Below are positions 18,754-39,769 of a stretch of 64,000 nt of DNA, piece by piece; position 1 is the first letter of the stretch; the number at the start of each line of letters is the position of its first letter. The notes below the pieces were generated by a model. It was not told the origin of the DNA. It saw only the letters and a program-made list of their open reading frames with translations, and searched no databases. The stretch lies in assembly GCA_963727625.1 (NCBI GenBank), contig CAVSHR010000009.1, positions 256,001 through 320,000 on the forward strand. The letters run 5' to 3'. The position numbers were made by a program, and so were the translations under genes. This DNA comes from an uncultured delta proteobacterium. Its GTDB lineage: Bacteria > Desulfobacterota > Binatia > UBA9968.

Positions 18754-19743
18754 ATGCCAAGGAACGATCAGATTACGCGTCAATGGCAGCTTCTGCGACA
18801 ACTTGAAGGTTCGCCGGGACGAAGCCTTCAAGAGCTTGTCGACAACATCCCGGACGATTACCCGAAAAACGCCCGCACGGTGCGGCGCGATCTGGAAGCG
18901 CTGGAAGCCGTCGGTTTCCCGCTCGTGACCGAGCGGCGCCACGGCCAAACTCGCTGGCGTCTGATGGAAGGCTTCCGCGATATTCTCGCGCTCGGCTTTT
19001 CCGCCACCGAGCTGATGGCGCTGCTTCTCAGCCGTAATCTCTTGAAGCCGCTCGAAGGCACCGAAATCGCCGCGTCCCTCAACTCCGCGCTCGGTAAAGC
19101 TTCGCTGCGCTGCCGCCACAGGGGCACGAGTATGTTCGGGCGATGGAGCAGATGTTTTCCGTCGGCATCGGTGCACATAAAAGCTATCGCGAGCACCGCC
19201 AAACCATCGATCTCATCTCCCAAGCCATCGACAAACGGTGTACCGCGCAAATGCGCTACTTCTCGGCTTCACGAAACGGCACCGCCCGGCGCGAGGTCGA
19301 TCCCTACTTTCCTCCGGTTCGCGGGCGGCGGCCTATATCTCATCGGCCACTGTCACTTGCGCAAAGAAGTGCGCATGTTCGCCGTCGAACGCATCCGCAC
19401 GATCGCGCTCACCGATCATCCCTATCAAATTCCTCTCGATTTCAAGGTCGACGACTACGTTCAGGACGCGCTCGGCGTCATGCGCAGCGGGCGCCGCATC
19501 GAAGTCGAGCTGCTTTTCTCCAAAAAAGCCGCCGCCTGGGTCAAAGATAAAACTTGGCATCCGAGCCAGCAGGTCAAGCTGCTGAAGGACGGCCGATTGA
19601 AAATGACCTTGAAAGTCGCCGACAACGAAGAGCTGGTTGGCTGGGTTTTGAGCTTTGGCGGCGAGGCGCGCGTTGTCCAACCCGAGGCGCTCCGACAAAA
19701 AGTCAGGGAAGAAGCTAAACATATACTCGGTTCCAAACTGTAG
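18754..19743 (+). CDS. HTH-WYL-WCX transcriptional regulator with two compensating frameshifts
   Basis: RTVRRDLEALE HTH; the middle part is in another frame (MRYFSASRNGTARREVDPY); LYLIGHCHLRKEVRMFAVERI; WVLSFG. Confidence 0.85.
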   Translation: MPRNDQITRQWQLLRQLEGSPGRSLQELVDNIPDDYPKNARTVRRDLEALEAVGFPLVTERRHGQTRWRLMEGFRDILALGFSATELMALLLSRNLLKPLEGTEIAASLNSALGKASLRCRHRGTSMFGRWSRCFPSASVHIKAIASTAKPSISSPKPSTNGVPRKCATSRLHETAPPGARSIPTFLRFAGGGLYLIGHCHLRKEVRMFAVERIRTIALTDHPYQIPLDFKVDDYVQDALGVMRSGRRIEVELLFSKKAAAWVKDKTWHPSQQVKLLKDGRLKMTLKVADNEELVGWVLSFGGEARVVQPEALRQKVREEAKHILGSKL

Positions 19744-19773
19744 TTTGTTTTCGACTCCCGGCCACGGGCGATT

Positions 19774-19789
19774 ACATCAATATTGATGT
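19774..19789. promoter_or_regulatory. TA operator palindrome
   Basis: perfect 16-bp palindrome ACATCAATATTGATGT 9 nt before the toxin start codon. Confidence 0.7.
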
Positions 19790-19798
19790 TGCCGTTGT

Positions 19799-20152
19799 AT
19801 GGAATTCGTAGTAGAGTTTTATGAAACCGAATCAGGCAGTTCCCCGGCGCGGGAGTTCCTGGACGAGTTGAGGCTCAGCGATCCTGACGACTTCGCGGCT
19901 GTCGTCGCGGGCCTGGCGAAGCTGCGTAACAGCCAGTATCACCGCGAGCCGCTTTCTAAAGCGCTGGGCGAGGGGCTTTTTGAGCTGCGCCATGTCGACA
20001 AGCTCAACACCCGTGTGCTGTGGTTTTTTATGAAAGGCAGGCGGATTGTCCTGCTGCACGGCATACGTAACAAGGCACGGGCGATTCCATTGCGCGATCT
20101 CGCAACCACGCGGGAACGGATGCGCGATTGGCGCAAAAGAGCGAAACAGTGA
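19799..20152 (+). CDS. RelE/HigB-like (Gp49 family) toxin
   Basis: VEFYETESG, KALGEGLFELR, RVLWFF, IVLLHG; GTGA overlap with the HTH gene. Confidence 0.85.
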   Translation: MEFVVEFYETESGSSPAREFLDELRLSDPDDFAAVVAGLAKLRNSQYHREPLSKALGEGLFELRHVDKLNTRVLWFFMKGRRIVLLHGIRNKARAIPLRDLATTRERMRDWRKRAKQ

Positions 20153-20913
20153 AAAAGACCAATTTCGACCGGTATCTTGAAAAACAATTGGATAATCCGG
20201 CTTTTGCCGCTCGGTTTAAAACAGCCGGCGAGGCGTGGGACGTGGCGCTGCAGATTGCTGCGTTGCGCGAGCAAGTCGGACTTTCGCAGAAGGACCTCGC
20301 CAAGCAGCTCAAGACTTCGCAACAACAAATCAGCCGACTGGAGTCGCCTAGTTACGAAGGCCACAGCCTGAGCATGCTCCGCCGCGTCGCCGACGCCTTG
20401 CACGCAAAGCTGCACGTCAGCTTCGAACCGGGAAATTCAGACGCCCACATGCAAGTCGCCGATCGCCCGGCCACATATCGGAAAGATCGCAGCGTGCCCG
20501 CGAATACGGCAATAAGGAAACTTGGCAGCATGGAATCTGACGAAGCGAGATTGCCCCGCCGCCGAGACCGTGACCAGACCGTCGGTACCATCACTGGAAC
20601 AAAAATAAATCGAAAATATCTGGCGGAAATCGTGCGGCGAATCCTCACGGTAACCGAGCCGGAGAGAATTATCCTGTTCGGTTCCGCGGCAAGGAGCGAG
20701 ATGGGACCGGACAGCGATCTTGATATTCTGGTGGTTACGGCTTGCGATCATCGCCGCAACACCGCTAGGGAGATTCGGAGCGCGCTCTTCGGTATCGGCA
20801 TACCGATAGACATCATTGTGGCGAAACCGCAAGACCTCGAACGCTACGGCGACGCCATCGGTCTTGTTTATCGTCCTGCGCTCAGGGAGGGAACCGTTCT
20901 TTATGCCGCGTAG
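20149..20913 (+). CDS. HigA-like HTH antitoxin in one ORF with a minimal nucleotidyltransferase (MNT)
   Basis: LSQKDLAKQLKTSQQQISRLE HTH, then ILFGSAAR...DSDLDILV with no stop between. Confidence 0.8.
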   Translation: MKKTNFDRYLEKQLDNPAFAARFKTAGEAWDVALQIAALREQVGLSQKDLAKQLKTSQQQISRLESPSYEGHSLSMLRRVADALHAKLHVSFEPGNSDAHMQVADRPATYRKDRSVPANTAIRKLGSMESDEARLPRRRDRDQTVGTITGTKINRKYLAEIVRRILTVTEPERIILFGSAARSEMGPDSDLDILVVTACDHRRNTAREIRSALFGIGIPIDIIVAKPQDLERYGDAIGLVYRPALREGTVLYAA

Positions 20914-21325
20914 GATCGGCTTTATCGGGAAGCCAGAAGATTGGCTGCGCCGGGCCAAAGGCAATCTCGCAAGGGCGAAGCAAACAAAACCCAAAGACGC
21001 TTTCTGGGAAGATCTTTGTTTCGATGCGCAACAAGCAGCAGAAAAGTCCATCAAGGCGGTCTTGGTTTTCCGTCGGCTCGAGATTCGCAAATCCCATGAC
21101 CTCAGAGGGTTGTTGAGCTTGCTTGAAACCGCCGGCTATCCAGTACCCGAGGAGATACGAAAAGCAGATGATCTCACCGACTACGCCGTCGAGACCCGTT
21201 ATCCCGGGTTAACCGAGCCCGTTGGCCCGACCGAATACCGCGATGCCGTTCGGCTGGCGGAAGCCGTGGTGCGTTGGGCCGAAGAACAAATCGGAGTGCG
21301 AAAGAAAAGTAAAAGGAAGACCTAG
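20903..21325 (+). CDS. HEPN domain protein
   Basis: FDAQQAAEKSIKA, KSHDL, YAVETRYP; overlaps the MNT stop. Confidence 0.88.
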   Translation: MPRRIGFIGKPEDWLRRAKGNLARAKQTKPKDAFWEDLCFDAQQAAEKSIKAVLVFRRLEIRKSHDLRGLLSLLETAGYPVPEEIRKADDLTDYAVETRYPGLTEPVGPTEYRDAVRLAEAVVRWAEEQIGVRKKSKRKT

Positions 21326-21924: not shown

Positions 21925-22521
21925 ATGCCGTACGTGGATTTGGCGTTTAGGTTGACCGGCAGCAAGGTGCCTGTGGATCACGGATATGCCCTCTATTCGG
22001 CGATCAGCCGGATTTTGCCGGAGATTCACGGCGCGAAGAGTATTGGCGTGCATCCCATCCGGGGCACGTATTCCGGGAACGGCGAACTGATGCTCCGAGA
22101 TTCATCGCGATTAATCATAAGGCTCGAAAGTGAACACATCGGAGAAGTTCTGAAACTCGCCGGCAAACGATTGGATATAGACAGCCACAGCCTCCGGGTC
22201 GGTATACCTGAGGTCCGTCTTCTTCGCGCACGTGCTTCACTATACTCGCGCCTCGTCACAATCAAAGGCTTTATGGACCCTGCAGCGTTTCTGGAATCAG
22301 CCAAGAGACAGTTGGAGAAGCTTGGCGTCGACGCAGAAATTCAGGTTGGTGAACGGCGAACTTTCCGGCTCAAGGATAAGCAGGTGGTCGGATTTGAAGT
22401 CGCGGCCTCGGAAGTAGACGCTGCCGGATCTTTACGATTGCAGGAGAATGGACTCGGCGGCCGAAGGCATATGGGTTGTGGGATTTTTACGGGATCTGCT
22501 GTGCAAAGGTCAGCGGGATGA
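21925..22521 (+). CDS. cas6: Cas6 (Myxan/Cmx6 type)
   Basis: VDLAFRLTG, VDHGYALYSAI, G-rich loop GLGGRRHMGCGIF. Confidence 0.92.
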   Translation: MPYVDLAFRLTGSKVPVDHGYALYSAISRILPEIHGAKSIGVHPIRGTYSGNGELMLRDSSRLIIRLESEHIGEVLKLAGKRLDIDSHSLRVGIPEVRLLRARASLYSRLVTIKGFMDPAAFLESAKRQLEKLGVDAEIQVGERRTFRLKDKQVVGFEVAASEVDAAGSLRLQENGLGGRRHMGCGIFTGSAVQRSAG

Positions 22522-24751
22522 GCGGCTATCCGAGACTCTTAGCCAAGAGCAGTAAAGCACCAAACTCCCCGCTTGGGCTAGAAACGCTGCCTGGTCATAC
22601 AGCCAATGTTCTTGCTGCAGCGGAAGCGCTGCTGGACGAAACCGGTGACTCCCAATTGGCTGCTGTTCGATTAGCTCCAGAAATCTGGCGGCAAGATTTC
22701 CGTCGCAGCGTACTAGCGGCAGCATTTTGCCACGACCTAGGCAAGGCGAACGACCAATTTCAAGCAATGGTCCGTCATCAGCGTGAGGGGAAACAGGCCG
22801 TTCGCCATGAAGCGTTGTCGCTATTAATTATTGAGGAGACCATTCTACGGAATTGGCTTGTGGCGGGTCTGAAGGATGCAGAGGATCTAAAATTTCTTCT
22901 ATGGGCAGCAGCCGGTCATCATCGGAAATTTCCACCTAGCAAACCTGACCAGGGAACCGGCGTGCGACTTTCTCTTTTCCTCGGACATCCCGATTTTCAC
23001 CGTACACTATTGGTCGGTGCCAAGTGGCTCGGCTTGGATGATCCACCGCGACTCGACGATCAAAAGTGGCAACTCACCGGAGCAAACTCCCCCACCACGC
23101 GATTGAGCCGCTTCTGGATCCGTGCTGCTGAATATTGGAGTACCTGTGTGGACGAACGGCGTCGGTTTCTCGCAGCCATGAAAGCATGTGTCATTGCTGC
23201 TGACATCGCTGGCTCAGCGTTGCCGAAACAGAAAAAGAAAATTGCCGTTCGACTCGCGAAGCTCGAATCGTCGACCAACGGCTGACCAACTTCAGAAGAT
23301 TGTTGATGACCGATTACAGGGATTATCTCCCGCGTCCTTTTCAAAATGCCTTGGCAGGAACCAGGGAGCGAGTCGTCCTTGCTCAGGCAGGGTGCGGAAC
23401 TGTCCGGAAAAACCTAGGGGCAATCTGTTGGGCTGCACGGCGCACACCGGGAAGACGACTGTTTTCGCATATCCGACGACTGGCACCGCAACTGAAGGTT
23501 TTCGCGATTATCTTGTTGATCCCACTCTTGACGCTCAGTTAGTCCACGGCCGCGCAGCTGTGATCTCGACTTGCTCGGCGTAGGAGTCGATGATGGTGAA
23601 AATCAGGACCCTCTTGCAGCTCTTGATGCGTGGTCAACTCTTATTACCAGTTGCTCGGTGGATACTGTGCTTCGCCTGACCCAGAATCACCGCCGGGGTC
23701 TCTACGCTTGGCCCGCTTTGGCAAATTCCGCGTTTGTTTTTGATGAGATTCATGCTTACGACGATCGCCTGTTTGACGCGCTGCTGCGGTTTTTGACCAG
23801 CTGTCGTGGTTTGCCTTGTCTTCTTATGACTGCGAGTCTCCCCCAAGCGCGGCGTGCGGCTCTTGAGGACGCTCTACGCGGACTAGGCGAATCGCTGGAA
23901 AGCGTGAGTGGCCCAAGCGATTTAGAAAACCTACCTCGTTACCAGCGCTTACTAAATGATAATCCCTGGTCGGTGGTCGAGCAACGCTTAGAGACAACGG
24001 AAAAGTACTTTGGGTGGTGAACACCGTCGACCGTGCATTCAATTTAGCCAATCAAGCTGAGGCCCGAAGCATTGAACCACTCGTGTACCACAGCCGGTTC
24101 CGTTACGAAGACCGCGTGCGGCAACATGGACGGCTTATTGCGGCGTTTCGAACAAATCTGCCAGTGTTGGCTATAACTACGCAAGTGGCCGAGATGCGTG
24201 CTGAGATCTTTCAGCCGATCTTTTGGTGACCGACTTAGCGCCGATCGCGGCCCTTATTCAAAGGCTTGGGCGATTAAACCGCAGGTCGACCCCAGTGAAT
24301 CGCATTCCTCCAAAGCCTTTTCTTCATCTAGAACCAGATACCGAGGCTCCCTCTAGGACTCAAGATCATCCAGACCCTTTTGCTGCAGGGACCCGAGTAT
24401 GGCTGGAAAATTTCGGTGCGGTGCCAGTCTCACAAGCTGACCTGGCGCGAACCTGGATCCATCTGGACGAGAATGCTATACCGCAATTCTTTGAAAGCGC
24501 CTGGTTGGATGGCGGCTTCAAACGACGCCCCGCCATTTGCGGGAAAGTCTTCCTGGCTTGACCGTCTTGCTCGAGGAAGATGCCGATGGCGTCGCACGTG
24601 GCGAAGTGGATCCCGCACGCGTCCGTATTCCCCATGAACCCACCACGCAACAGGGCGTGGAACAAATGGCGGGAGGTGGCTTTTGCTCGCGTTCCTCCGA
24701 TCAGAGTACATCAGGTACGATTCAGAACGAGGTGCTCAATGGCGTCATTGA
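22518..24751 (+). pseudogene. cas3: Cas3 HD nuclease-helicase, multiply frameshifted
   Basis: HDLGKAN, GHH, YPTTGTATEGF, FDEIH, LMTAS, YHSRF, TTQVAEM, IQRLGRLNR spread over several frames. Confidence 0.88.
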
Positions 24752-26349
24752 CGTGCGACCTCTTTGCCCCGGGCATGACTCAGGCTCCATCGAGCTGGTC
24801 TTGCAGGCTTGGCTAGCACGCTGCGGTGGGTTGAGAAGAAGGTCCCCAAAGGAGAGCGTCCGGGCGGGCGGTTCGGTCGGACAATTGACGAACACTCGGT
24901 GACATTGAGTTGGGAGGAGAATGACGGGAAACGGTTACTCTTCGAGCGACTTTTTGCCTTAACCTACCAACTCAAAAATGATCTTATCTATCTAGCTGGC
25001 CAGTACACGGAACTCCCCCCGCCGTTAGAAGTGCGGGCCGCGCTCCAGGAAGGACTTCTACTAAGTTTTTATGACCACGGAGTTCAATCCCGTGGAAAAA
25101 AAAGGAGGCGCGCGAGTTCGTACATACGAAATCGATGACAAGGCAGTTACATACCGATACCTTCCTCTCTCCTGGTATAAACACCAGCGAGATGGTTCAA
25201 ATTTTTGTTGCAAGCTATCGGAGGGAGTGCTGCAAATAACTCGAACGCTTTTTCCAGGGGCAACAGAAAGGTCCTGCCGGACTACCGGCACCCATGTGAT
25301 TCGCGCAGCCCAACCTGCTCTGCCACTATTTTTCGCACCTGTCGGAACCGTTGCCTTTAGGGCTGGCGGGAAACGTGTGAATCGATCGGGGAAAGCGTAA
25401 TTCGAAAGCCGGTGCCGCATTGTTACATCCCAGATGTGCGAAATCTTTTAAGCGCACAGTATATCCTTCCAGCACTACTACCGAGGAATGTGGTCAGAGA
25501 CTGCCAGGTTACTAACATTGCAGGAGTGCTGCTGCCCTACAGGCGGAACTGCGATTGCGTAGTCGCGATGTTGCTTCAATCGCGACGTGATCCCTGCTAT
25601 TCGTTGTGTGTGGTGTTGTCCTGCCGACTGGAATTACAGGCTCCAGCCGCCATCGTTTGTCACTGAGGTTAATTCGACGCAGTTGATCCGAAACTAGACC
25701 AGTTGACCTTGGCGATGCATGCCTTGGCTGGGCAGATATTACCGAGAAAAAACGAGAAGACGGGAGAATATTTCTGGCCCAGAAGTTATGTGCGTCCGCT
25801 CGTGGCCGACAACCTTGCGTCAATCGCCCCTGGTACGAAGGTTTAATCGTTTGATGACGAATCAAGATCCGCTTACGGAACCATCCAATTCGCAACTACT
25901 TACATTTCGAAAGGAAAGGACTGCACATCATGACCGAAGAAATCCGATGGGGTCATCCCGGAGAGGAATCGATCGTTCGCGCTGTCCACGAAGCTCTTCG
26001 ATGCCGCTATGGTCGCATAGCTTCCGAGAACTCAAAAAATCCTGCCGCGATGAAAAAACGTATGGCACGCGAATATGAACGCCTTCGACTAGCATTTGCC
26101 GGTTCTAAAACGGTCGACACCCTGCGACACGCTCTTACCGATCTCTGGAGCAGAGGCGGTTCCAACAATGTTTTGAAAGAGTTATGGCCCCAAGTCTTGC
26201 CAATGCTCGCGAGCAATAAATGGCAGCTGACTCGCGATTTGGCGCTGTTGGCTCTCGCGAGCTACCAGGCAAAGGAGAAGAAGAGATTGATCTCATCAAC
26301 ATTGATGATGAACCAAAAGGAACAGAAGAAACGGAGGAACAGGTATCGA
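24739..26349 (+). pseudogene. cas8: Cas8 (Cmx8, type I-B Myxan), frameshifted
   Basis: start MASLTCDLFAPGMT; C-terminal ERLRLAFAGSKT...[15 protein letters not shown]; position between cas3 and cas7. Confidence 0.8.
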
Positions 26350-27242
26350 GCCGTCATTTATTCGTCAATCTCACCCATCGCCACACCGCCAATAATCGTG
26401 GAGAAACCGACGGAAACGTCACCACGTTACAAAAGCTCTTGTGGCAAGGGCAAGTCCATACCACCGTGAGCGCAGAGGCGATTCGTTTTGCGTTGCGCCG
26501 CACTCGTCAGTGCCGTTGAGGGGGAGAAAACAAATGCGTCGCTGGGATGAGAGTGTACGGTCAATATTTGGGAAGATCCAGAATTTTCAGAGGCTTGGAA
26601 GAAGAAAGACGATGCGACCTTTATTGACGACGATCTGCTTGGGTTCATCAGTGCGAAAGCGGCGAGTCAAGAAGGGCAGGCCGGTACTGCCGACGTTCGG
26701 CGAGCGGTGTTGGAAGTTACAAGGGCAATATCTTTGCTTCCATGGGGCGGCGACGTATTTTCAATGCTGCTAGTCCGGGAGCGACACCGAGCGCTGCAAA
26801 AAAAGGTAATAATCCCGTTCCCTACGGCACGGAACTGCATGCTACGCGATACCAATACGGAATCGCCCTAACACCCGGATCGACTGCGCAAAAAGGACAG
26901 AGCCAAACCAGCTGTTGCTGGCCTATGTCGGACTGTGTCCGAGGTGGCAGGTAATCGTAGGCCGTTTTCTTTTCGATTTCTCTCTCCGAGAGTATCGTGT
27001 TTAGACTGACCGATGATCCTGCTCCTCGGCTCCTCTACGTTTTTGAGCAGAATGAACAAAATATCGACGCGCCATTGTTACTCGCTCGAGTTGAAGCCGG
27101 TGACATTAAAGCGGAGGAGTTAGTGATTGGTGGCAGTTTCGCGGCCACGATGACAGCCAAGAAATTAAAGGAGCTGGGAGCAGATGTTCTTCCGGGTGTC
27201 CGGAAGGCAGCAGAAACTGTACTCGGCAAGCTCGAAAGCTAA
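26345..27242 (+). pseudogene. cas7: Cas7 (DevR-like), frameshifted
   Basis: [55 protein letters not shown]; start codon appears disrupted (ATCGAGC for ATGAGC). Confidence 0.85.
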
Positions 27243-27244
27243 GT

Positions 27245-27925
27245 ATGATCGGCCTGTATGTGTCGGTGCCTGTTGCTTGCTTCCGCAAGGGATTGGCGCG
27301 CGAGTATCTTGAAACCGAAGCGCTACCACCGCCGGCGACGTGTTACGGTTTCTTGCTTTCGTTAGTGGGAGAAATCGACCGCACGCGGCATATCGGTTGT
27401 CGCGTAACTGCCGCTCTCATAGGACAACCGGAAAAAAGCGCGGTGTTACGAACGGTCTGGAAAATAAAGAACCGGAATCTCTACATGGGACAAACTCCTC
27501 CGTCGGGTGCGCCGAAAAAAGTGAAAAACGCCGGAGGCAACCGTATGCTTGACCGGCAAGAACTCCTCACCGGAGTTAAAGTCGTTATATGGCTAGACTC
27601 GCACGAAGAGAGCACGGAAAATACTGTCTTAGAGCAACGTGCACGAGAATCGCTCACGCATCCAGAACGTATATTTCGTTTCGGTGGCCTCTCATTGGGC
27701 GAAAGCGCCCATCAGTCGATGAAGTGAAACTCTTTGATGGTGACCCGACGACCGAAAGTGCAGTTTTCTGTTGAGCCCCGCGGGCAATTGACCCTTCCGG
27801 TATGGGTAGATCACGTCGGTTCAGAAGATACCCGGTATGTGACCGGAGACCTGCTGATGTCGCGACTCGTGCCGCCCGATCTTGCTCGCATGCCGAAGAT
27901 CGAGCCCGCTGAAATAGTTGCTTAA
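27245..27925 (+). pseudogene. cas5: Cas5 (DevS-like), frameshifted near the 3' end
   Basis: VSVPVACFRKGLAREYLET.ALPPPATCYGFLLSLVGE, RFGGLSLGES, LPVWVDHVGS. Confidence 0.87.
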
Positions 27926-27937
27926 TTCCCAAGGACA

Positions 27938-29578
27938 TTGACTATGGATGAATCGGGACCTCTCGTCCGCGTCATGGCGCTGCACGCGCTGATGTATTGT
28001 GAGCGGCTTTTCTATCTTGAGGAAGTGGAGGAAATCCGCGTTGCTGACGCGTCGGTCTATGCTGGCCGTAGGCTTCACGAAGAGTTGGCGGCGGATGAAG
28101 GGGAAATCGTTAGTCTAGTTTTAGAGAGCGAGAAGCTCGGGTTGAAAGGGAAGGTTGATTGCCTGCGGCGAAGAAACGGTCAGCTCATTCCTTACGAACA
28201 TAAGCGCGGGCGTTCTCGCAAAGGCGATGATGGTCCGGAAGCATGGCCAAGTGATCGACTTCAGGTCTATGCCTACACGATGCTGTTGGAAGAGCATACC
28301 GGAACTGCCATCGACGAGGCGAGAATCCGCTACCACGCGGACAACGCGACTGTTCGGGTCGCTGTAGACGAAACGGCTCGTGAGAAGGTTGCGTGGGCGG
28401 TTCGACGGGTGCGGGAGTTGCGCCAGTCGGTCCAGCGGCCTCCGGTGACGGACAACGAACGGCTTTGCCTCAACTGTTCGCTTGCGCCGGTGTGTTTACC
28501 GGAGGAGGAGCGTTTAGCTCGCGACCGTGAATGGGCACCGGTCCGCTTATTTCCCAAAGACAAGGATAGGCAAACAGTTCATGTCACGGATCACGGTGCG
28601 CGCGTGACGCGGTCAGGGGACACGTTCGCAATAATTCGGATAGACAATACGAAGGAGACTTTGCCCGTCAGGGAGGTTGGAGAGTTGGTGTTGCACGGGG
28701 GCGCGCAGATCACCACGCAAGCGATTCACCTTTGCGCCCAGCAAGAAGTCGGAGTGCATTGGGTAAGCGGCGGCGGGCGTTACATCGGAAGCATTGCTGC
28801 TGGAGCAAGTCCGGTGCAGCGGCGAATTCGACAATACGAAGCTCTGCGTGAGCCAGGGTTTTGTTTTAAGTTGGCCAGAAAGCTTGCCTCTGCCCGCTCG
28901 GCGAGCCAACTCGGATTCTTGTTACGCGCCTCTCGAGAAAAGGGACGCGGCGCCGAAATAGACGGAGCACTTCGAGGCATACGAGCCGCGTTGCGATCGA
29001 TGAACCAAGCGGAAGGGATCGATTCCCTACGCGGATTGGAAGGAGATGCAGGGCGGCTCTACTTCTCGGGTCTACCGGTTTTGCTGAAAGACGAGATCGA
29101 TGAGCGGTTGCGTTTTAACGGCCGCAATCGACGACCGCCGAAAGATTGTTTCAATGCCTTATTGAGCTTCGGTTACGCGTTGCTCTACCGCGATGTGATG
29201 CAGGCGATTCTTGCGGTTGGCCTGGAACCTTCTTTTGGTTTTTACCATACTCCACGGTCCGCTTCGCATCCTCTCGCGTTAGATCTCATGGAACTTTTTC
29301 GCGTACCGCTCTGGGATATGCCCCTTGTTGCATCGGTAAATCGTTTGCAGTGGAGTCCCGACGAAGATTTTACGATTGCGGGCGAGCAAGTATGGCTAAG
29401 CGACACCGGTCGAAAAAAGGCAATCGAAGTCTATGAGCGGCGAAAGGAGGATCAATGGAAACATCCGGTAACGGGGTATTCGCTATCGTATGCCAGGCTA
29501 ATCGAACTTGAGTGCCGGTTGCTCGAAAAAGAATGGACCGGAGAGCCGGGGCTATTTGCCAGAATGCGGTTAAGGTGA
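27938..29578 (+). CDS. cas1: Cas4-Cas1 fusion, intact
   Basis: Cas4 YCER...GKVD...EHKRG...CLNCSLAPVC; Cas1 LRGLEG, NALLSFGYALL, FYH, LDLMELFR. Confidence 0.95.
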   Translation: MTMDESGPLVRVMALHALMYCERLFYLEEVEEIRVADASVYAGRRLHEELAADEGEIVSLVLESEKLGLKGKVDCLRRRNGQLIPYEHKRGRSRKGDDGPEAWPSDRLQVYAYTMLLEEHTGTAIDEARIRYHADNATVRVAVDETAREKVAWAVRRVRELRQSVQRPPVTDNERLCLNCSLAPVCLPEEERLARDREWAPVRLFPKDKDRQTVHVTDHGARVTRSGDTFAIIRIDNTKETLPVREVGELVLHGGAQITTQAIHLCAQQEVGVHWVSGGGRYIGSIAAGASPVQRRIRQYEALREPGFCFKLARKLASARSASQLGFLLRASREKGRGAEIDGALRGIRAALRSMNQAEGIDSLRGLEGDAGRLYFSGLPVLLKDEIDERLRFNGRNRRPPKDCFNALLSFGYALLYRDVMQAILAVGLEPSFGFYHTPRSASHPLALDLMELFRVPLWDMPLVASVNRLQWSPDEDFTIAGEQVWLSDTGRKKAIEVYERRKEDQWKHPVTGYSLSYARLIELECRLLEKEWTGEPGLFARMRLR

Positions 29579-29581
29579 AGT

Positions 29582-29884
29582 ATGGCCGAGGAAAAATTTC
29601 TCTATCTCGTTTGTTACGATATCCGTGAGCCCAAGAGGTGGCGGCGCGCCTACAAGCTGCTCAAAGGATATGGGAAAAGTCTTCAGTACTCAATTTTTGA
29701 GTGCAGAATGACGAGGCGTGAATTGGAACGAATGCGATGGGAGCTTGAGAAAGAACTATCAGAAGAAGACAGCCTGATGATCGCGGGATTGTGCGCTGGC
29801 TGCCATTCAAAGGTCATTGCCAGAAATACGAGAAACGAATACCTGCAGGAAGAACGCAAGTTTCGAATCGTCGGTGCAGCGTGA
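29582..29884 (+). CDS. cas2: Cas2, intact
   Basis: YLVCYDIREPKR, LQYSIFEC. Confidence 0.95.
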   Translation: MAEEKFLYLVCYDIREPKRWRRAYKLLKGYGKSLQYSIFECRMTRRELERMRWELEKELSEEDSLMIAGLCAGCHSKVIARNTRNEYLQEERKFRIVGAA

Positions 29885-30130
29885 GAGTAGGACCGGCTCA
29901 GGTATCTGCGCATGTTTATTACGCTAAGTACATGATTCTCTCTAACTTAGCCTCGGGCAAAGGGAAATTGAAAATTAATAATCGTGAAGATGCTTGAGGG
30001 GAAAAAGCGTTGGCGGTTTCTATGGATGTAACTCGTACCATTCGAATGGCTAAAAGTTTCGATCAGAAATCCCGGGTACTTGAAGGTCGCATAAAAATCT
30101 ACAGAAAGGATACGGAGTTAGCCGTAAGCG
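29885..30130 (+). promoter_or_regulatory. CRISPR leader
   Basis: AT-rich non-coding stretch between cas2 and repeat 1 with a repeated RGRTRCTTGA-like motif. Confidence 0.75.
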
Positions 30131-31842
30131 GTGAAGGAATCTGTGATGCCGAAAGGCGTTGAGCACATGGCAGCATCGCGACGGATGGTGATCGACTCGT
30201 CGGGTGAAGGAATCTGTGATGCCGAAAGGCGTTGAGCACGCAGACCTCGATGATCGCGGTGATCCGCTCAGCGTGAAGGAATCTGTGATGCCGAAAGGCG
30301 TTGAGCACTACGAGTACTGATCCGTATCGTCGATGCGGTCCGTGGTGAAGGAATCTGTGATGCCGAAAGGCGTTGAGCACATCTAGGCAGTCGCTGATCA
30401 CACGAGCTTGCCGTGCAGCGTGAAGGAATCTGTGATGCCGAAAGGCGTTGAGCACTGCTGCCGTCGCTCAACGATCTCGCACCACCGAGGTGAAGGAATC
30501 TGTGATGCCGAAAGGCGTTGAGCACTAACCGCTGCAATCGCATCCAGACGCTGATCGCAACGTGTGAAGGAATCTGTGATGCCGAAAGGCGTTGAGCACT
30601 AGCCGCATGCGCGAGCGTCTGGCAGTCGAGGCACTGTCGTGAAGGAATCTGTGATGCCGAAAGGCGTTGAGCACAGACTCGCAGACGCAAGTCATCTGTG
30701 CACGCTATGACCAGTGTGAAGGAATCTGTGATGCCGAAAGGCGTTGAGCACGCGATCGAAGCCGATACTGCACGATGGCTAGCGGACCGTGAAGAATCTG
30801 TGATGCCGAAAGGCGTTGAGCACAAGCAGCGATTCGAGTCTGACGCAGCTCGCAACGGTGAAGGAATCTGTGATGCCGAAAGGCGTTGAGCACCATCGCA
30901 ATCGACATCGACGCCGTGCAGCTGACGTCGTGAAGGAATCTGTGATGCCGAAAGGCGTTGAGCACCGTCAAGGCGCGCTGACGTTGATCGAGCTGCACGA
31001 TCGTGAAGGAATCTGTGATGCCGAAAGGCGTTGAGCACAGTCTGAACGCCAGCTGACATGGCGACCGACGACTGTGAAGGAATCTGTGATGCCGAAAGGC
31101 GTTGAGCACAAGACGAATGCGGCAGACATCGAGACTGCAGTCCAGAGTGAAGAATCTGTGATGCCGAAAGGCGTTGAGCACGTCGTCGCTCGACCGGTCA
31201 CCGTGCAAATCGTCGTGTGAAGGAATCTGTGATGCCGAAAGGCGTTGAGCACCATCGCGGACACGGCTGACTTGACCGTCTGGCAGCGTGTGAAGGAATC
31301 TGTGATGCCGAAAGGCGTTGAGCACCACGACCGTGATGAGCCGAGACTATCGGCAGTCAAAGTGTGAAGGAATCTGTGATGCCGAAAGGCGTTGAGCACA
31401 CCGGCAGCGATCAGACAGCGATCGACGCGATGCAGCTGTGAAGGAATCTGTGATGCCGAAAGGCGTTGAGCACCAGTCATGATCTGCGAATGCCGATTGC
31501 GACGCTGTCCGGTGAAGGAATCTGTGATGCCGAAAGGCGTTGAGCACTGATGTCGCAGGTCAGTCGACGTCGATCGCCGAGTCGTGTGAAGGAATCTGTG
31601 ATGCCGAAAGGCGTTGAGCACATACGATGTGCATTACCGGCGACTTGATGGTGCTCGCGTGTGAAGGAATCTGTGATGCCGAAAGGCGTTGAGCACACGG
31701 CAAGTCTGCAGTCGATGCAGGCGACCGTGCGATCGGTGAAGGAATCTGTGATGCCGAAAGGCGTTGAGCACCTTCAGTACGACGTCATGTCCATCGACGA
31801 TTCGCTGTGAAGGAATCTGTGATGCCGAAAGGCGTTGAGCAC
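30131..31842 (+). CRISPR. CRISPR array, 24 repeats and 23 spacers (33-41 bp)
   Basis: 36-bp repeat GTGAAGGAATCTGTGATGCCGAAAGGCGTTGAGCAC; repeats 10 and 15 lack one G; internal hairpin GCC-GAAA-GGC. Confidence 0.99.
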
Positions 31843-31860
31843 TATATCAATGCAACCGAT

Positions 31861-32858
31861 GGGGTCAGACTTCTACGACTCAACTATCTTGCTCAGCCGG
31901 TCGACCTCCCGCCTGACCGTATCATCTGCTTGCAACCGATCGCTCAGCCGTGCGAGCAAGGTCGCGAGTGTCGCTATGTCTCTATTGAAATAGGCCGCCA
32001 CATCGCTTAACCGGTAACCGAGCCTTCGAACCAATACGTACGCCGCTATCGTGCGCGCTTTCGATATCGTCCAACCCCGATCCGGACTACGCAGCGCCTG
32101 AACCTCGATTTTCAACTGCTTCCCGAGCTCTCTCGCCATCGTCTCGATGGACCGCCGCGTCGGCCTTTTGCCCGAAAGACGCGCTTCCTTCTTCAGCAAC
32201 CTTTCGCCGAACCCCTCGGGGCCGAGAAACCTCTGATCCTCCACCGCATAGTATTTTTCCTTGTGCCCTTGGCTCAAACCGTCTTGAACAAACCTGCGAT
32301 AGGCCTGTTTCCCTCCCAACATCGATAAAACGGGCGCCGGATCGATCATTTCCGTAGCCTTCCCCTGTAGATACGCGTGATCCCCTGAGTAACGATAGCG
32401 CTCCGGACTCCTGACCATGCCGGCGCGCACCGGGTTGAGATGAATATAACGGATCAGCTGAAGCAGATACTCGTCTTTCTGGCAAAGGATCGCCTTGTAG
32501 CGCCCTTCAAATACGTGTCCGGTCTTACGGTGTTTAAGATTGAAATATTGGCTGTAGGATTGTTGCAGCCCTTGCATGAGTTTGGCGAGAGGGTGATGGG
32601 AACTCTCCACCAGCAAATGAACGTGATTGGGCATCAAACAGTAGGCGTGCAACTTGTAGTCGTATTTCTTGCGATAGCGCGCCAGTCGTTCGGTATAGGC
32701 CTGATAATCGCCGTCGGAGGTGAAAATCTTCTGCCGCTGGTTGCCGCGCACAATCACGTGATAGAGAACCCCTGCGGCAAATACTCTCGGCCGGCGCGCC
32801 ATGACGTGCTTCCATATCAAGGCGAATCAAGATAGTCAACTCGTAGAAGTCTGACCCC
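31861..32858 (-). mobile_element. 998-bp RAYT/Y1 transposase unit, copy 1, with 31-bp terminal inverted repeats
   Basis: left GGGGTCAGACTTCTACGACTCAACTATCTTG vs reverse complement of right end GGGGTCAGACTTCTACGAGTTGACTATCTTG (27/31). Confidence 0.85.
31873..32802 (-). CDS. REP-associated tyrosine (HUH/Y1) transposase with DnaA-C-like HTH tail
   Basis: YHVIVRGN, AYCLMPNHVHLL, GHVFEGRY, YIHLNPVRAG; C-terminal AR..AAY...LSDVAAYFNRD. Confidence 0.9.
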   Translation of the reverse strand: MARRPRVFAAGVLYHVIVRGNQRQKIFTSDGDYQAYTERLARYRKKYDYKLHAYCLMPNHVHLLVESSHHPLAKLMQGLQQSYSQYFNLKHRKTGHVFEGRYKAILCQKDEYLLQLIRYIHLNPVRAGMVRSPERYRYSGDHAYLQGKATEMIDPAPVLSMLGGKQAYRRFVQDGLSQGHKEKYYAVEDQRFLGPEGFGERLLKKEARLSGKRPTRRSIETMARELGKQLKIEVQALRSPDRGWTISKARTIAAYVLVRRLGYRLSDVAAYFNRDIATLATLLARLSDRLQADDTVRREVDRLSKIVES

Positions 32859-38771: not shown

Positions 38772-39769
38772 GGGGTCAGACTTCTACGACTCAACTATCT
38801 TGCTCAGCCGGTCGACCTCCCGCCTGACCGTATCATCTGCTTGCAACCGATCACTCAGCCGTGCGAGCAAGGTCGCGAGTGTCGCTATGTCTCTATTGAA
38901 ATAGGCCGCCACATCGCTTAACCGGTAACCGAGCCTTCGAACCAATACGTACGCCACTATCGTGCGCGCTTTCGATATCGTCCAACCCCGATCCGGACTA
39001 CGCAGCGCCTGAACCTCGATTTTCAACTGCTTCCCGAGCTCTCTCGCCACCGTCTCGATGGACCGCCGCGTCGGCCTTTTGCCCGAAAGACGCGCTTCCT
39101 TCTTCAGCAACCTTTCGCCGAACCCCTCGGGGCCGAGAAACCTCTGATCCTCCACCGCATAGTATTTTTCCTTGTGCCCTTGGCTCAAACCGTCTTGAAC
39201 AAACCTGCGATAGGCCTGTTTCCCTCCCAACATCGATAAAACAGGCGCCGGATCGATCATTTCCGTAGCCTTCCCCTGTAGATACGCGTGATCCCCTGAG
39301 TAACGATAGCGCTCCGGACTCCTTACCATGCCGGCGCGCACCGGGTTGAGATGAATATAACGGATCAGCTGAAGCAGATACTCGTCTTTCTGGCAAAGGA
39401 TCGCCTTGTAGCGCCCTTCAAATACGTGTCCGGTCTTACGGTGTTTAAGATTGAAATATTGGCTGTAGGATTGTTGCAGCCCTTGCATGAGTTTGGCGAG
39501 AGGGTGATGGGAACTCTCCACCAGCAAATGAACGTGATTGGGCATCAAACAGTAGGCGTGCAACTTGTAGTCGTATTTCTTGCGATAGCGCGCCAGTCGT
39601 TCGGTATAGGCCTGATAATCGCCGTCGGAGGTGAAAATCTTCTGCCGCTGGTTGCCGCGCACAATCACGTGATAGAGAACCCCTGCGGCAAATACTCTCG
39701 GCCGGCGCGCCATGACGCATTCCCATATCAAAATCAATCGAGATAGTCAATTTATAAAAGTCTGACCCT
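38772..39769 (-). mobile_element. 998-bp RAYT/Y1 transposase unit, copy 2
   Basis: left TIR identical to copy 1; right TIR more degenerate (GAGATAGTCAATTTATAAAAGTCTGACCCT). Confidence 0.85.
38784..39713 (-). CDS. REP-associated tyrosine transposase, copy 2
   Basis: about five substitutions vs copy 1 by eye (two amino-acid changes). Confidence 0.9.
   Translation of the reverse strand: MARRPRVFAAGVLYHVIVRGNQRQKIFTSDGDYQAYTERLARYRKKYDYKLHAYCLMPNHVHLLVESSHHPLAKLMQGLQQSYSQYFNLKHRKTGHVFEGRYKAILCQKDEYLLQLIRYIHLNPVRAGMVRSPERYRYSGDHAYLQGKATEMIDPAPVLSMLGGKQAYRRFVQDGLSQGHKEKYYAVEDQRFLGPEGFGERLLKKEARLSGKRPTRRSIETVARELGKQLKIEVQALRSPDRGWTISKARTIVAYVLVRRLGYRLSDVAAYFNRDIATLATLLARLSDRLQADDTVRREVDRLSKIVES

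Follow-up and report, generated by a model that had tools for sequence, protein, structure and literature searches.

The 23 spacers of the CRISPR array at positions 30131–31842 (plus strand) of the window, by which we mean the whole 64,000-nt stretch of DNA that was analysed, have an anomalous composition in which runs of identical bases are scarce. We place the probability that these sequences are a blended consensus, and not biology, at roughly 85%. The array itself, with its 24 repeats of 36 nt, and the type I-MYXAN cas locus beside it are real, while the 23 spacer sequences are probably carried by no cell. Blending of heterogeneous arrays during long-read assembly had been mentioned in an initial annotation of this DNA as an alternative to its main proposal, and it is the alternative that is favoured here, as simulated blending reproduces the whole signature quantitatively.

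Composition of the spacers and of control arrays

Adjacent bases are identical at 83 of 827 positions within the spacers (10.0%), compared to 16611 of 62199 positions (26.7%) in the rest of the window, giving a z of approximately −10.7. The base composition of the spacers would by itself give 26.0% identical neighbours. When 23 length-matched pieces of background were drawn 5000 times the mean was 26.7% with a standard deviation of 1.5% and a minimum of 21.0%, and 2000 shuffles of each spacer gave a minimum of 20.1%. All 23 spacers are affected, with 2–5 identical neighbours each (5–15%) and no gradient along the array. The spacers contain 686 single bases, 79 doubles, two triples and no longer runs, both triples being AAA (in spacers 15 and 17).

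The depletion extends to bases separated by two positions, which are identical in 16.7% of cases versus 24.3% (z −4.9), while identity at distances of 3–8 is normal. Four-base words containing all four letters are enriched 2.6-fold, at 22.4% versus 8.5% (z 11.6), and the GC content is 59.6%, compared to 55.3% for the window. The initial annotation had counted approximately 10% identical dinucleotides, no CCC, GGG or TTT and only two AAA, all of which is borne out, and the words it named as frequent, GATC (15), TCGA (16), TGCA (12) and CGAC (16), are indeed among the commonest 4-mers of the spacers. The k-mer statistics that it proposed against shuffled controls show an anomaly stronger than first claimed. 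The plausible peptides that it saw in many spacers carry no signal, since an average of 4.39 of the six reading frames are open in each spacer and 4.45 in random 37-mers of the genome.

To compare these spacers with those of other arrays we considered the same genome, the same repeat and the same repeat family. The one other array of this genome lies outside the window on a contig designated C12 (C12:288543–290847) and consists of 32 copies of a 37-nt repeat with 31 ordinary spacers, in which 289 of 1090 neighbours are identical (26.5%), distance-2 identity is 26.4% and four-letter 4-mers make up 9.0%. Within this second array a two-spacer block is duplicated and another spacer reappears in slightly altered form. 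Its first “spacer” consists of 47 nt of a 7-nt tandem unit that is also found on contig C11 near position 200,300.

A scan of metagenome contigs for the full 36-nt repeat gave two matching contigs. The short-read contig L130, which carries the identical repeat, contains 10 spacers, nine of them distinct, with runs as long as T6 and C5 and with 83 of 320 neighbours identical (25.9%). That L130 might represent the same locus was considered and rejected, its flank having no match in this genome.

The 22-nt core of the repeat was then sought in one genome per species and found at no fewer than 121 loci. Among the matches listed, 72 arrays have at least five spacers; their fractions of identical neighbours range from 0.201 to 0.357 and none of the 72 falls below 15%, in records with short-read-style contig names and in chromosome-scale metagenome-assembled genome (MAG) records alike. 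Within the taxonomic family of the window the core occurs in 7 of 90 genomes, including the window's own and one unpublished genome with a single match that supports none of the conclusions, and the largest array among these family genomes has 275 of 1013 neighbours identical (27.1%). The anomaly is specific to the present array as assembled, and is not a trait of the organism, repeat family or cas type.

The array and its cas locus

Repeat-to-repeat spacing in the array is 69–77 nt, the regular arrangement of direct repeats that characterises a CRISPR array, and the spacers are 33–41 nt long and sum to 850 nt (mean 37.0 nt). A GG is reduced to a single G in two of the 24 repeats, at 30789 and 31147. 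The 3′ part of the repeat, 22 nt comprising the hairpin GCC-GAAA-GGC and GTTGAGCAC, is identical in arrays of many phyla (loci L009–L129), which by record title include Planctomycetota, Acidobacteriota, Cyanobacteria, Myxococcota, Desulfobacterota and others, while the 14-nt 5′ part varies between lineages. A probable leader, judged by its position between the stop codon of cas2 and the first repeat, occupies 29885–30130 on the plus strand.

All of the recognised cas genes lie upstream of the array on the plus strand. An intact cas6/cmx6 at 21925–22521 matches TIGR02807 with 207.4 bits (cut-off 98.85), cas5/cmx5 (devS-like) at 27245–27727 matches TIGR02586 with 136.6 bits (cut-off 111.5), and an intact cas4-cas1 fusion of 546 amino acids at 27938–29578 matches the cas1_MYXAN family TIGR03983 with 529.8 bits (cut-off 358) and the cas4 family TIGR00372 with 92.3 bits. 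The intact cas2 at 29582–29884 matches TIGR01573 with 48.8 bits (cut-off 24.5). The genes cas1 and cas2 therefore adjoin the array, and the signature genes of the subtype score above their NCBIfam cut-offs.

The interference genes, cas3, cas8a1/cmx1 and presumably also cas7, are not intact. Between 22476 and 27242 they are spread over approximately a dozen short out-of-frame open reading frames (ORFs), while cas6, cas5, cas4-cas1 and cas2 are whole. The HD nuclease and helicase parts of cas3 (22476–24561) are found in at least four out-of-frame pieces, with TIGR01596, TIGR01587 and TIGR02621 matching separate ORFs, and cas8a1/cmx1 (csx13; 24809–26469) is found in several, with TIGR03485 and TIGR03486 matching three separate ORFs; all of these matches fall below the full-length cut-offs. 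In the profile search the ORFs at 26441–27242 gave no family match, and no cas7 was recognised in the cas locus. Long ORFs cover a fraction of 0.43 of the 6-kb interference region, which places it in the lowest 2.1% of 3271 6-kb windows of the genome, and runs of A5–A8 occur at only some of the junctions between the interference ORFs. The broken genes may reflect gene decay or a poor consensus in a strain-variable locus.

Type I-MYXAN systems, with their cmx genes, are exemplified by the Myxococcus dev locus. The present locus resembles them in having cas6/cmx6, cas5/cmx5 and cas1_MYXAN above cut-off, together with the cas4-cas1 fusion, cas2 and an array with a 36-nt repeat, and differs in that cas3 and cas8a1/cmx1 are in out-of-frame pieces and cas7 is not recognised. 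By its signature genes it is an ordinary type I-MYXAN system, though one with broken interference genes.

Downstream of the array, a Y1 (IS200-like/REP-associated) transposase fused to a DnaA-C-like helix-turn-helix (HTH) domain lies on the minus strand at 31873–32820, starting 30 nt past the last repeat. The far end of the related array on L130 bears a degenerate terminal repeat, and the end of the present array has none. Given this absence and the proximity of the transposase, the end of the array may have been cut by the insertion. A second copy of the transposase at 38784–39737, also on the minus strand, is 98% identical (310 of 315 amino acids), and the two copies flank a TctC/EamA/TctA/TctC transporter cluster. 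Just upstream of the cas genes, at 18754–21325, are ORFs for a WYL/WCX-domain protein, a Gp49-like protein, an HTH and nucleotidyltransferase protein and a HEPN-domain protein. The last two resemble a nucleotidyltransferase/HEPN toxin–antitoxin pair, and the HTH and nucleotidyltransferase ORF may be two genes run together.

A probable consensus of unrelated spacers

The spacers look like the product of long-read metagenome assembly, in which the polishing step would have worked on reads with matching repeats but unrelated spacers between them. Such a mixture might come from a population with many variants of the array, or from a longer array whose reads were stacked out of register. A polisher that edits one base at a time, maximising the alignment score or likelihood summed over the reads, would then arrive at a “median string”. 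The strings that score best against unrelated sequences are locally diverse: adjacent bases are never repeated, repeats at distance 2 are scarce and the more frequent bases are over-used; a string of this kind would find a matching base more often as a gapped alignment to an unrelated sequence proceeds. The outcome would be “spacers” that are run-free, rich in GATC, TCGA and CGAC, and raised in GC. Bukh and Cox reportedly found that a random word has longer subsequences in common with a periodic or letter-diverse word than with another random word. Such a result would help to explain why optimisation against unrelated sequences yields strings that avoid repeated letters and favour four-letter 4-mers, although it concerns the mathematics of longest common subsequences (LCS) and is not applied to assemblies.

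We simulated this process by taking N unrelated 34–39-mers from the genome, starting from one of them, and keeping single substitutions, insertions and deletions greedily for as long as they raised the alignment score summed over all N. Under unit costs, identity at distance 1 (lag-1) fell from 0.262 in the input to 0.223 for N=3, 0.171 for N=6, 0.128 for N=12 and 0.097 for N=25, compared to 0.100 in the observed spacers. For N=25 lag-2 identity was 0.184 (input 0.246, observed 0.167), lag-3 identity was 0.273 (input 0.276, observed 0.274), four-letter 4-mers made up 0.237 (input 0.088, observed 0.224) and GC was 0.646 (input 0.569, observed 0.596). N is a free parameter of the simulation, and the signature is reproduced with 12–25 unrelated spacers.

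The result depends little on the costs chosen. Five other scoring schemes gave lag-1 values of 0.073–0.102 and chiefly changed the length of the consensus, to 34–45 nt compared to the 37.0 nt observed; unit costs give a consensus of 31–32 nt, which is shorter than observed, and a match in length needs cheaper deletions. Over all schemes with N=20–25 the ranges were 0.073–0.102 for lag-1, 0.168–0.216 for lag-2, 0.226–0.276 for lag-3, 0.207–0.282 for four-letter 4-mers and 0.572–0.646 for GC. With input drawn from 1362 real spacers belonging to the listed arrays of this repeat family, lag-1 was 0.077–0.102 and lag-2 was 0.168–0.192. The 4-mer spectrum of the observed spacers correlates with that of the simulated strings at r 0.84, or 0.80–0.82 with real spacers as input, compared to r 0.45 with the genome and 0.39 with real spacers themselves. 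The top simulated 4-mers, ATCG, TCGA, CGAT, GATC, TCGC, GCGA and CGAC, are also the observed ones.

A further property of median strings was found by measuring edit distance. The mean distance of the observed spacers to 200 unrelated 34–39-mers is 20.27, while 60 random length-matched sets gave 21.45 ± 0.13 with a minimum of 21.09, and the C12 spacers gave 21.45. The observed spacers are closer to unrelated DNA than real DNA is, as median strings are, and they also carry the signature of such strings in lag-1, lag-2, four-letter 4-mers and the share of the commoner bases.

Not every way of building a consensus has this effect. A column-majority consensus (MAFFT) gave lag-1 of 0.259–0.263 and GC of 0.70, and a partial-order alignment (POA) heaviest-bundle consensus gave lag-1 of 0.217–0.248 for N=5–40; the latter was our own implementation, which, in a sanity test on clonal input, returned the correct sequence in 8 of 10 cases. 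Neither reproduces the signature, so the explanation holds only with a polisher that optimises alignment score or likelihood. We infer heterogeneous source reads and an assembler with a polisher of this type.

The polisher of Flye was inherited from its predecessor, ABruijn. In the “necklace” and “bubble” polishing described in the ABruijn preprint, “solid” landmarks divide the reads into segments of approximately 35 nt, and single insertions, deletions and substitutions that raise Pr(Segments|Consensus) are made until convergence (Lin et al. 2016, 10.1101/048413). The geometry of the array fits this scheme, with repeats as landmarks and spacers as segments. The difference is that all segments are there assumed to come from one sequence, while here the input would be unrelated segments. 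This genome was presumably polished in the ABruijn style. Heterogeneity of the kind needed is reported in a portion of a long-read study (PMC9426551), where insertions and deletions of CRISPR spacers and shifting allele frequencies occur within populations mapped to one MAG. The present population is presumably heterogeneous as well, and blended consensus spacers are not described in that portion of the study. Our search of literature listings found no description of run-free blended spacers or of their signature.

The assembly has properties that fit long-read data. The 6.6 Mb of the genome fall into 15 contigs and each array lies within a large one, which is, together with the two repeats that are short of one G, consistent with long-read assembly. 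Between 27900 and 33900 of the window, no listed contig piece from two sequencing runs, each with 5% of the sampled words, lies on a spacer. Contigs of the same two runs lie on parts of cas1/cas2 (one of 468 nt with 6 differences), on repeat-bearing bins and on the transposase.

Some observations count against blending. Natural populations usually share spacers at the oldest end of the array, and here all 23 positions are equally affected, the oldest end included. In addition, several chromosome-scale MAG records of the repeat family, whether or not from long reads, show normal spacers. When one variant was mixed among unrelated reads, 24 in total, it was recovered once it reached approximately 42%, and a simulated lag-1 near 0.10 needs every variant to stay below approximately 10–17% of reads. 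Such a limit at all 23 positions suggests that the population is very diverse or that reads from a longer array were piled up out of register. The LCS per length is 0.686 among the 23 spacers and 0.687–0.712 among independent simulated blends, and this spacer-to-spacer measure does not separate a strain mixture from out-of-register stacking.

It also counts against blending that it does not clearly recur elsewhere in this genome. In a scan of sampled 120-nt windows no other clearly blended stretch was found; 11 windows had a share of three-letter 3-mers of at least 0.60, of which by eye ten were ordinary and one was a short tandem repeat. A scan in 150-nt windows listed 30 with less than 13% identical neighbours.

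Other origins and consequences

A technical artefact of another type, either homopolymer-compressed sequence or a mixed pile-up polished by a neural network, is improbable. Long-read technologies are at their weakest in base runs, and the two repeats short of one G would suit such an origin. Compression can be rejected on several counts, as it would leave no identical neighbours and a distance-2 identity of approximately 0.35, compared to the 0.100 and 0.167 observed; a compressed control gave 34.8% at distance 2. Sequences of 49 nt must be compressed to reach 36 nt, and the repeats between the spacers retain their AA, GG, CC, AAA and TT.

The main proposal of the initial annotation was that the array records one invader lineage with a homopolymer-avoiding genome, due to modified bases or a slippage-prone replicase, or else that acquisition is strongly biased. 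With ordinary control arrays and no protospacer, this proposal is unsupported. For an invader lineage speak the uniform composition of all 23 spacers and the fact that most real spacers also lack protospacer matches in databases. Protospacer searches gave no match beyond chance in the genome itself (best 17 nt) or in phages, only repeat-like matches or matches with E of 0.1–0.5 in plasmids, and no match in IMG/VR for the 3 of 23 spacers searched there; altogether they produced nothing usable. Just 5.6% of 37-mers in the genome have five or fewer identical neighbours, and 23 of 23 would have a probability of approximately 2e−29 if the spacers were independent. The share of three-letter 3-mers over the 850 nt of spacers, 0.637, exceeds the maximum of 0.617 among sampled 120-nt windows of the 6.6-Mb genome. 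An odd genome would not predict the depletion at distance 2 or the better alignment to unrelated sequences, whereas blending predicts both. We therefore regard a run-averse invader as very unlikely.

It is likewise very improbable that the 23 spacers are real single-molecule sequences whose templates, or whose process of manufacture, avoid base repeats at distances 1 and 2. Such spacers could come from an element whose genome lacks runs, for instance, or from untemplated synthesis; to our knowledge neither is found in any CRISPR system. That the Cas4-Cas1/Cas2 adaptation machinery selects run-free prespacers can hardly be credited, even with intact cas4-cas1 and cas2 adjoining the array, because the control arrays are ordinary: L130, which was matched by the identity of its repeat and not of its cas1, is at 25.9%, the 72 arrays of the repeat family among the matches listed are at 20–36%, and the same-family genome is at 27.1%.

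If blended consensus is the correct explanation, the 23 strings in a public genome would enter spacer databases, where they would contribute only noise to the matching of viruses with hosts. The practical value of the finding is a warning about false spacers in public long-read MAGs. Taken together, approximately 10% identical neighbours, a shortage of identities at distance 2 and over-representation of four-letter 4-mers also provide a cheap flag, requiring no reads, for blended consensus in long-read metagenome assemblies. Were the spacers real after all, they would be remarkable. As they are probably fictitious, the sequences are most likely of no matter as biology. For the population, blending would mean, according to the simulation, that no spacer variant exceeds approximately 10–17% of reads at any of the 23 positions, and that its array is either unusually diverse or much longer than it appears and collapsed.
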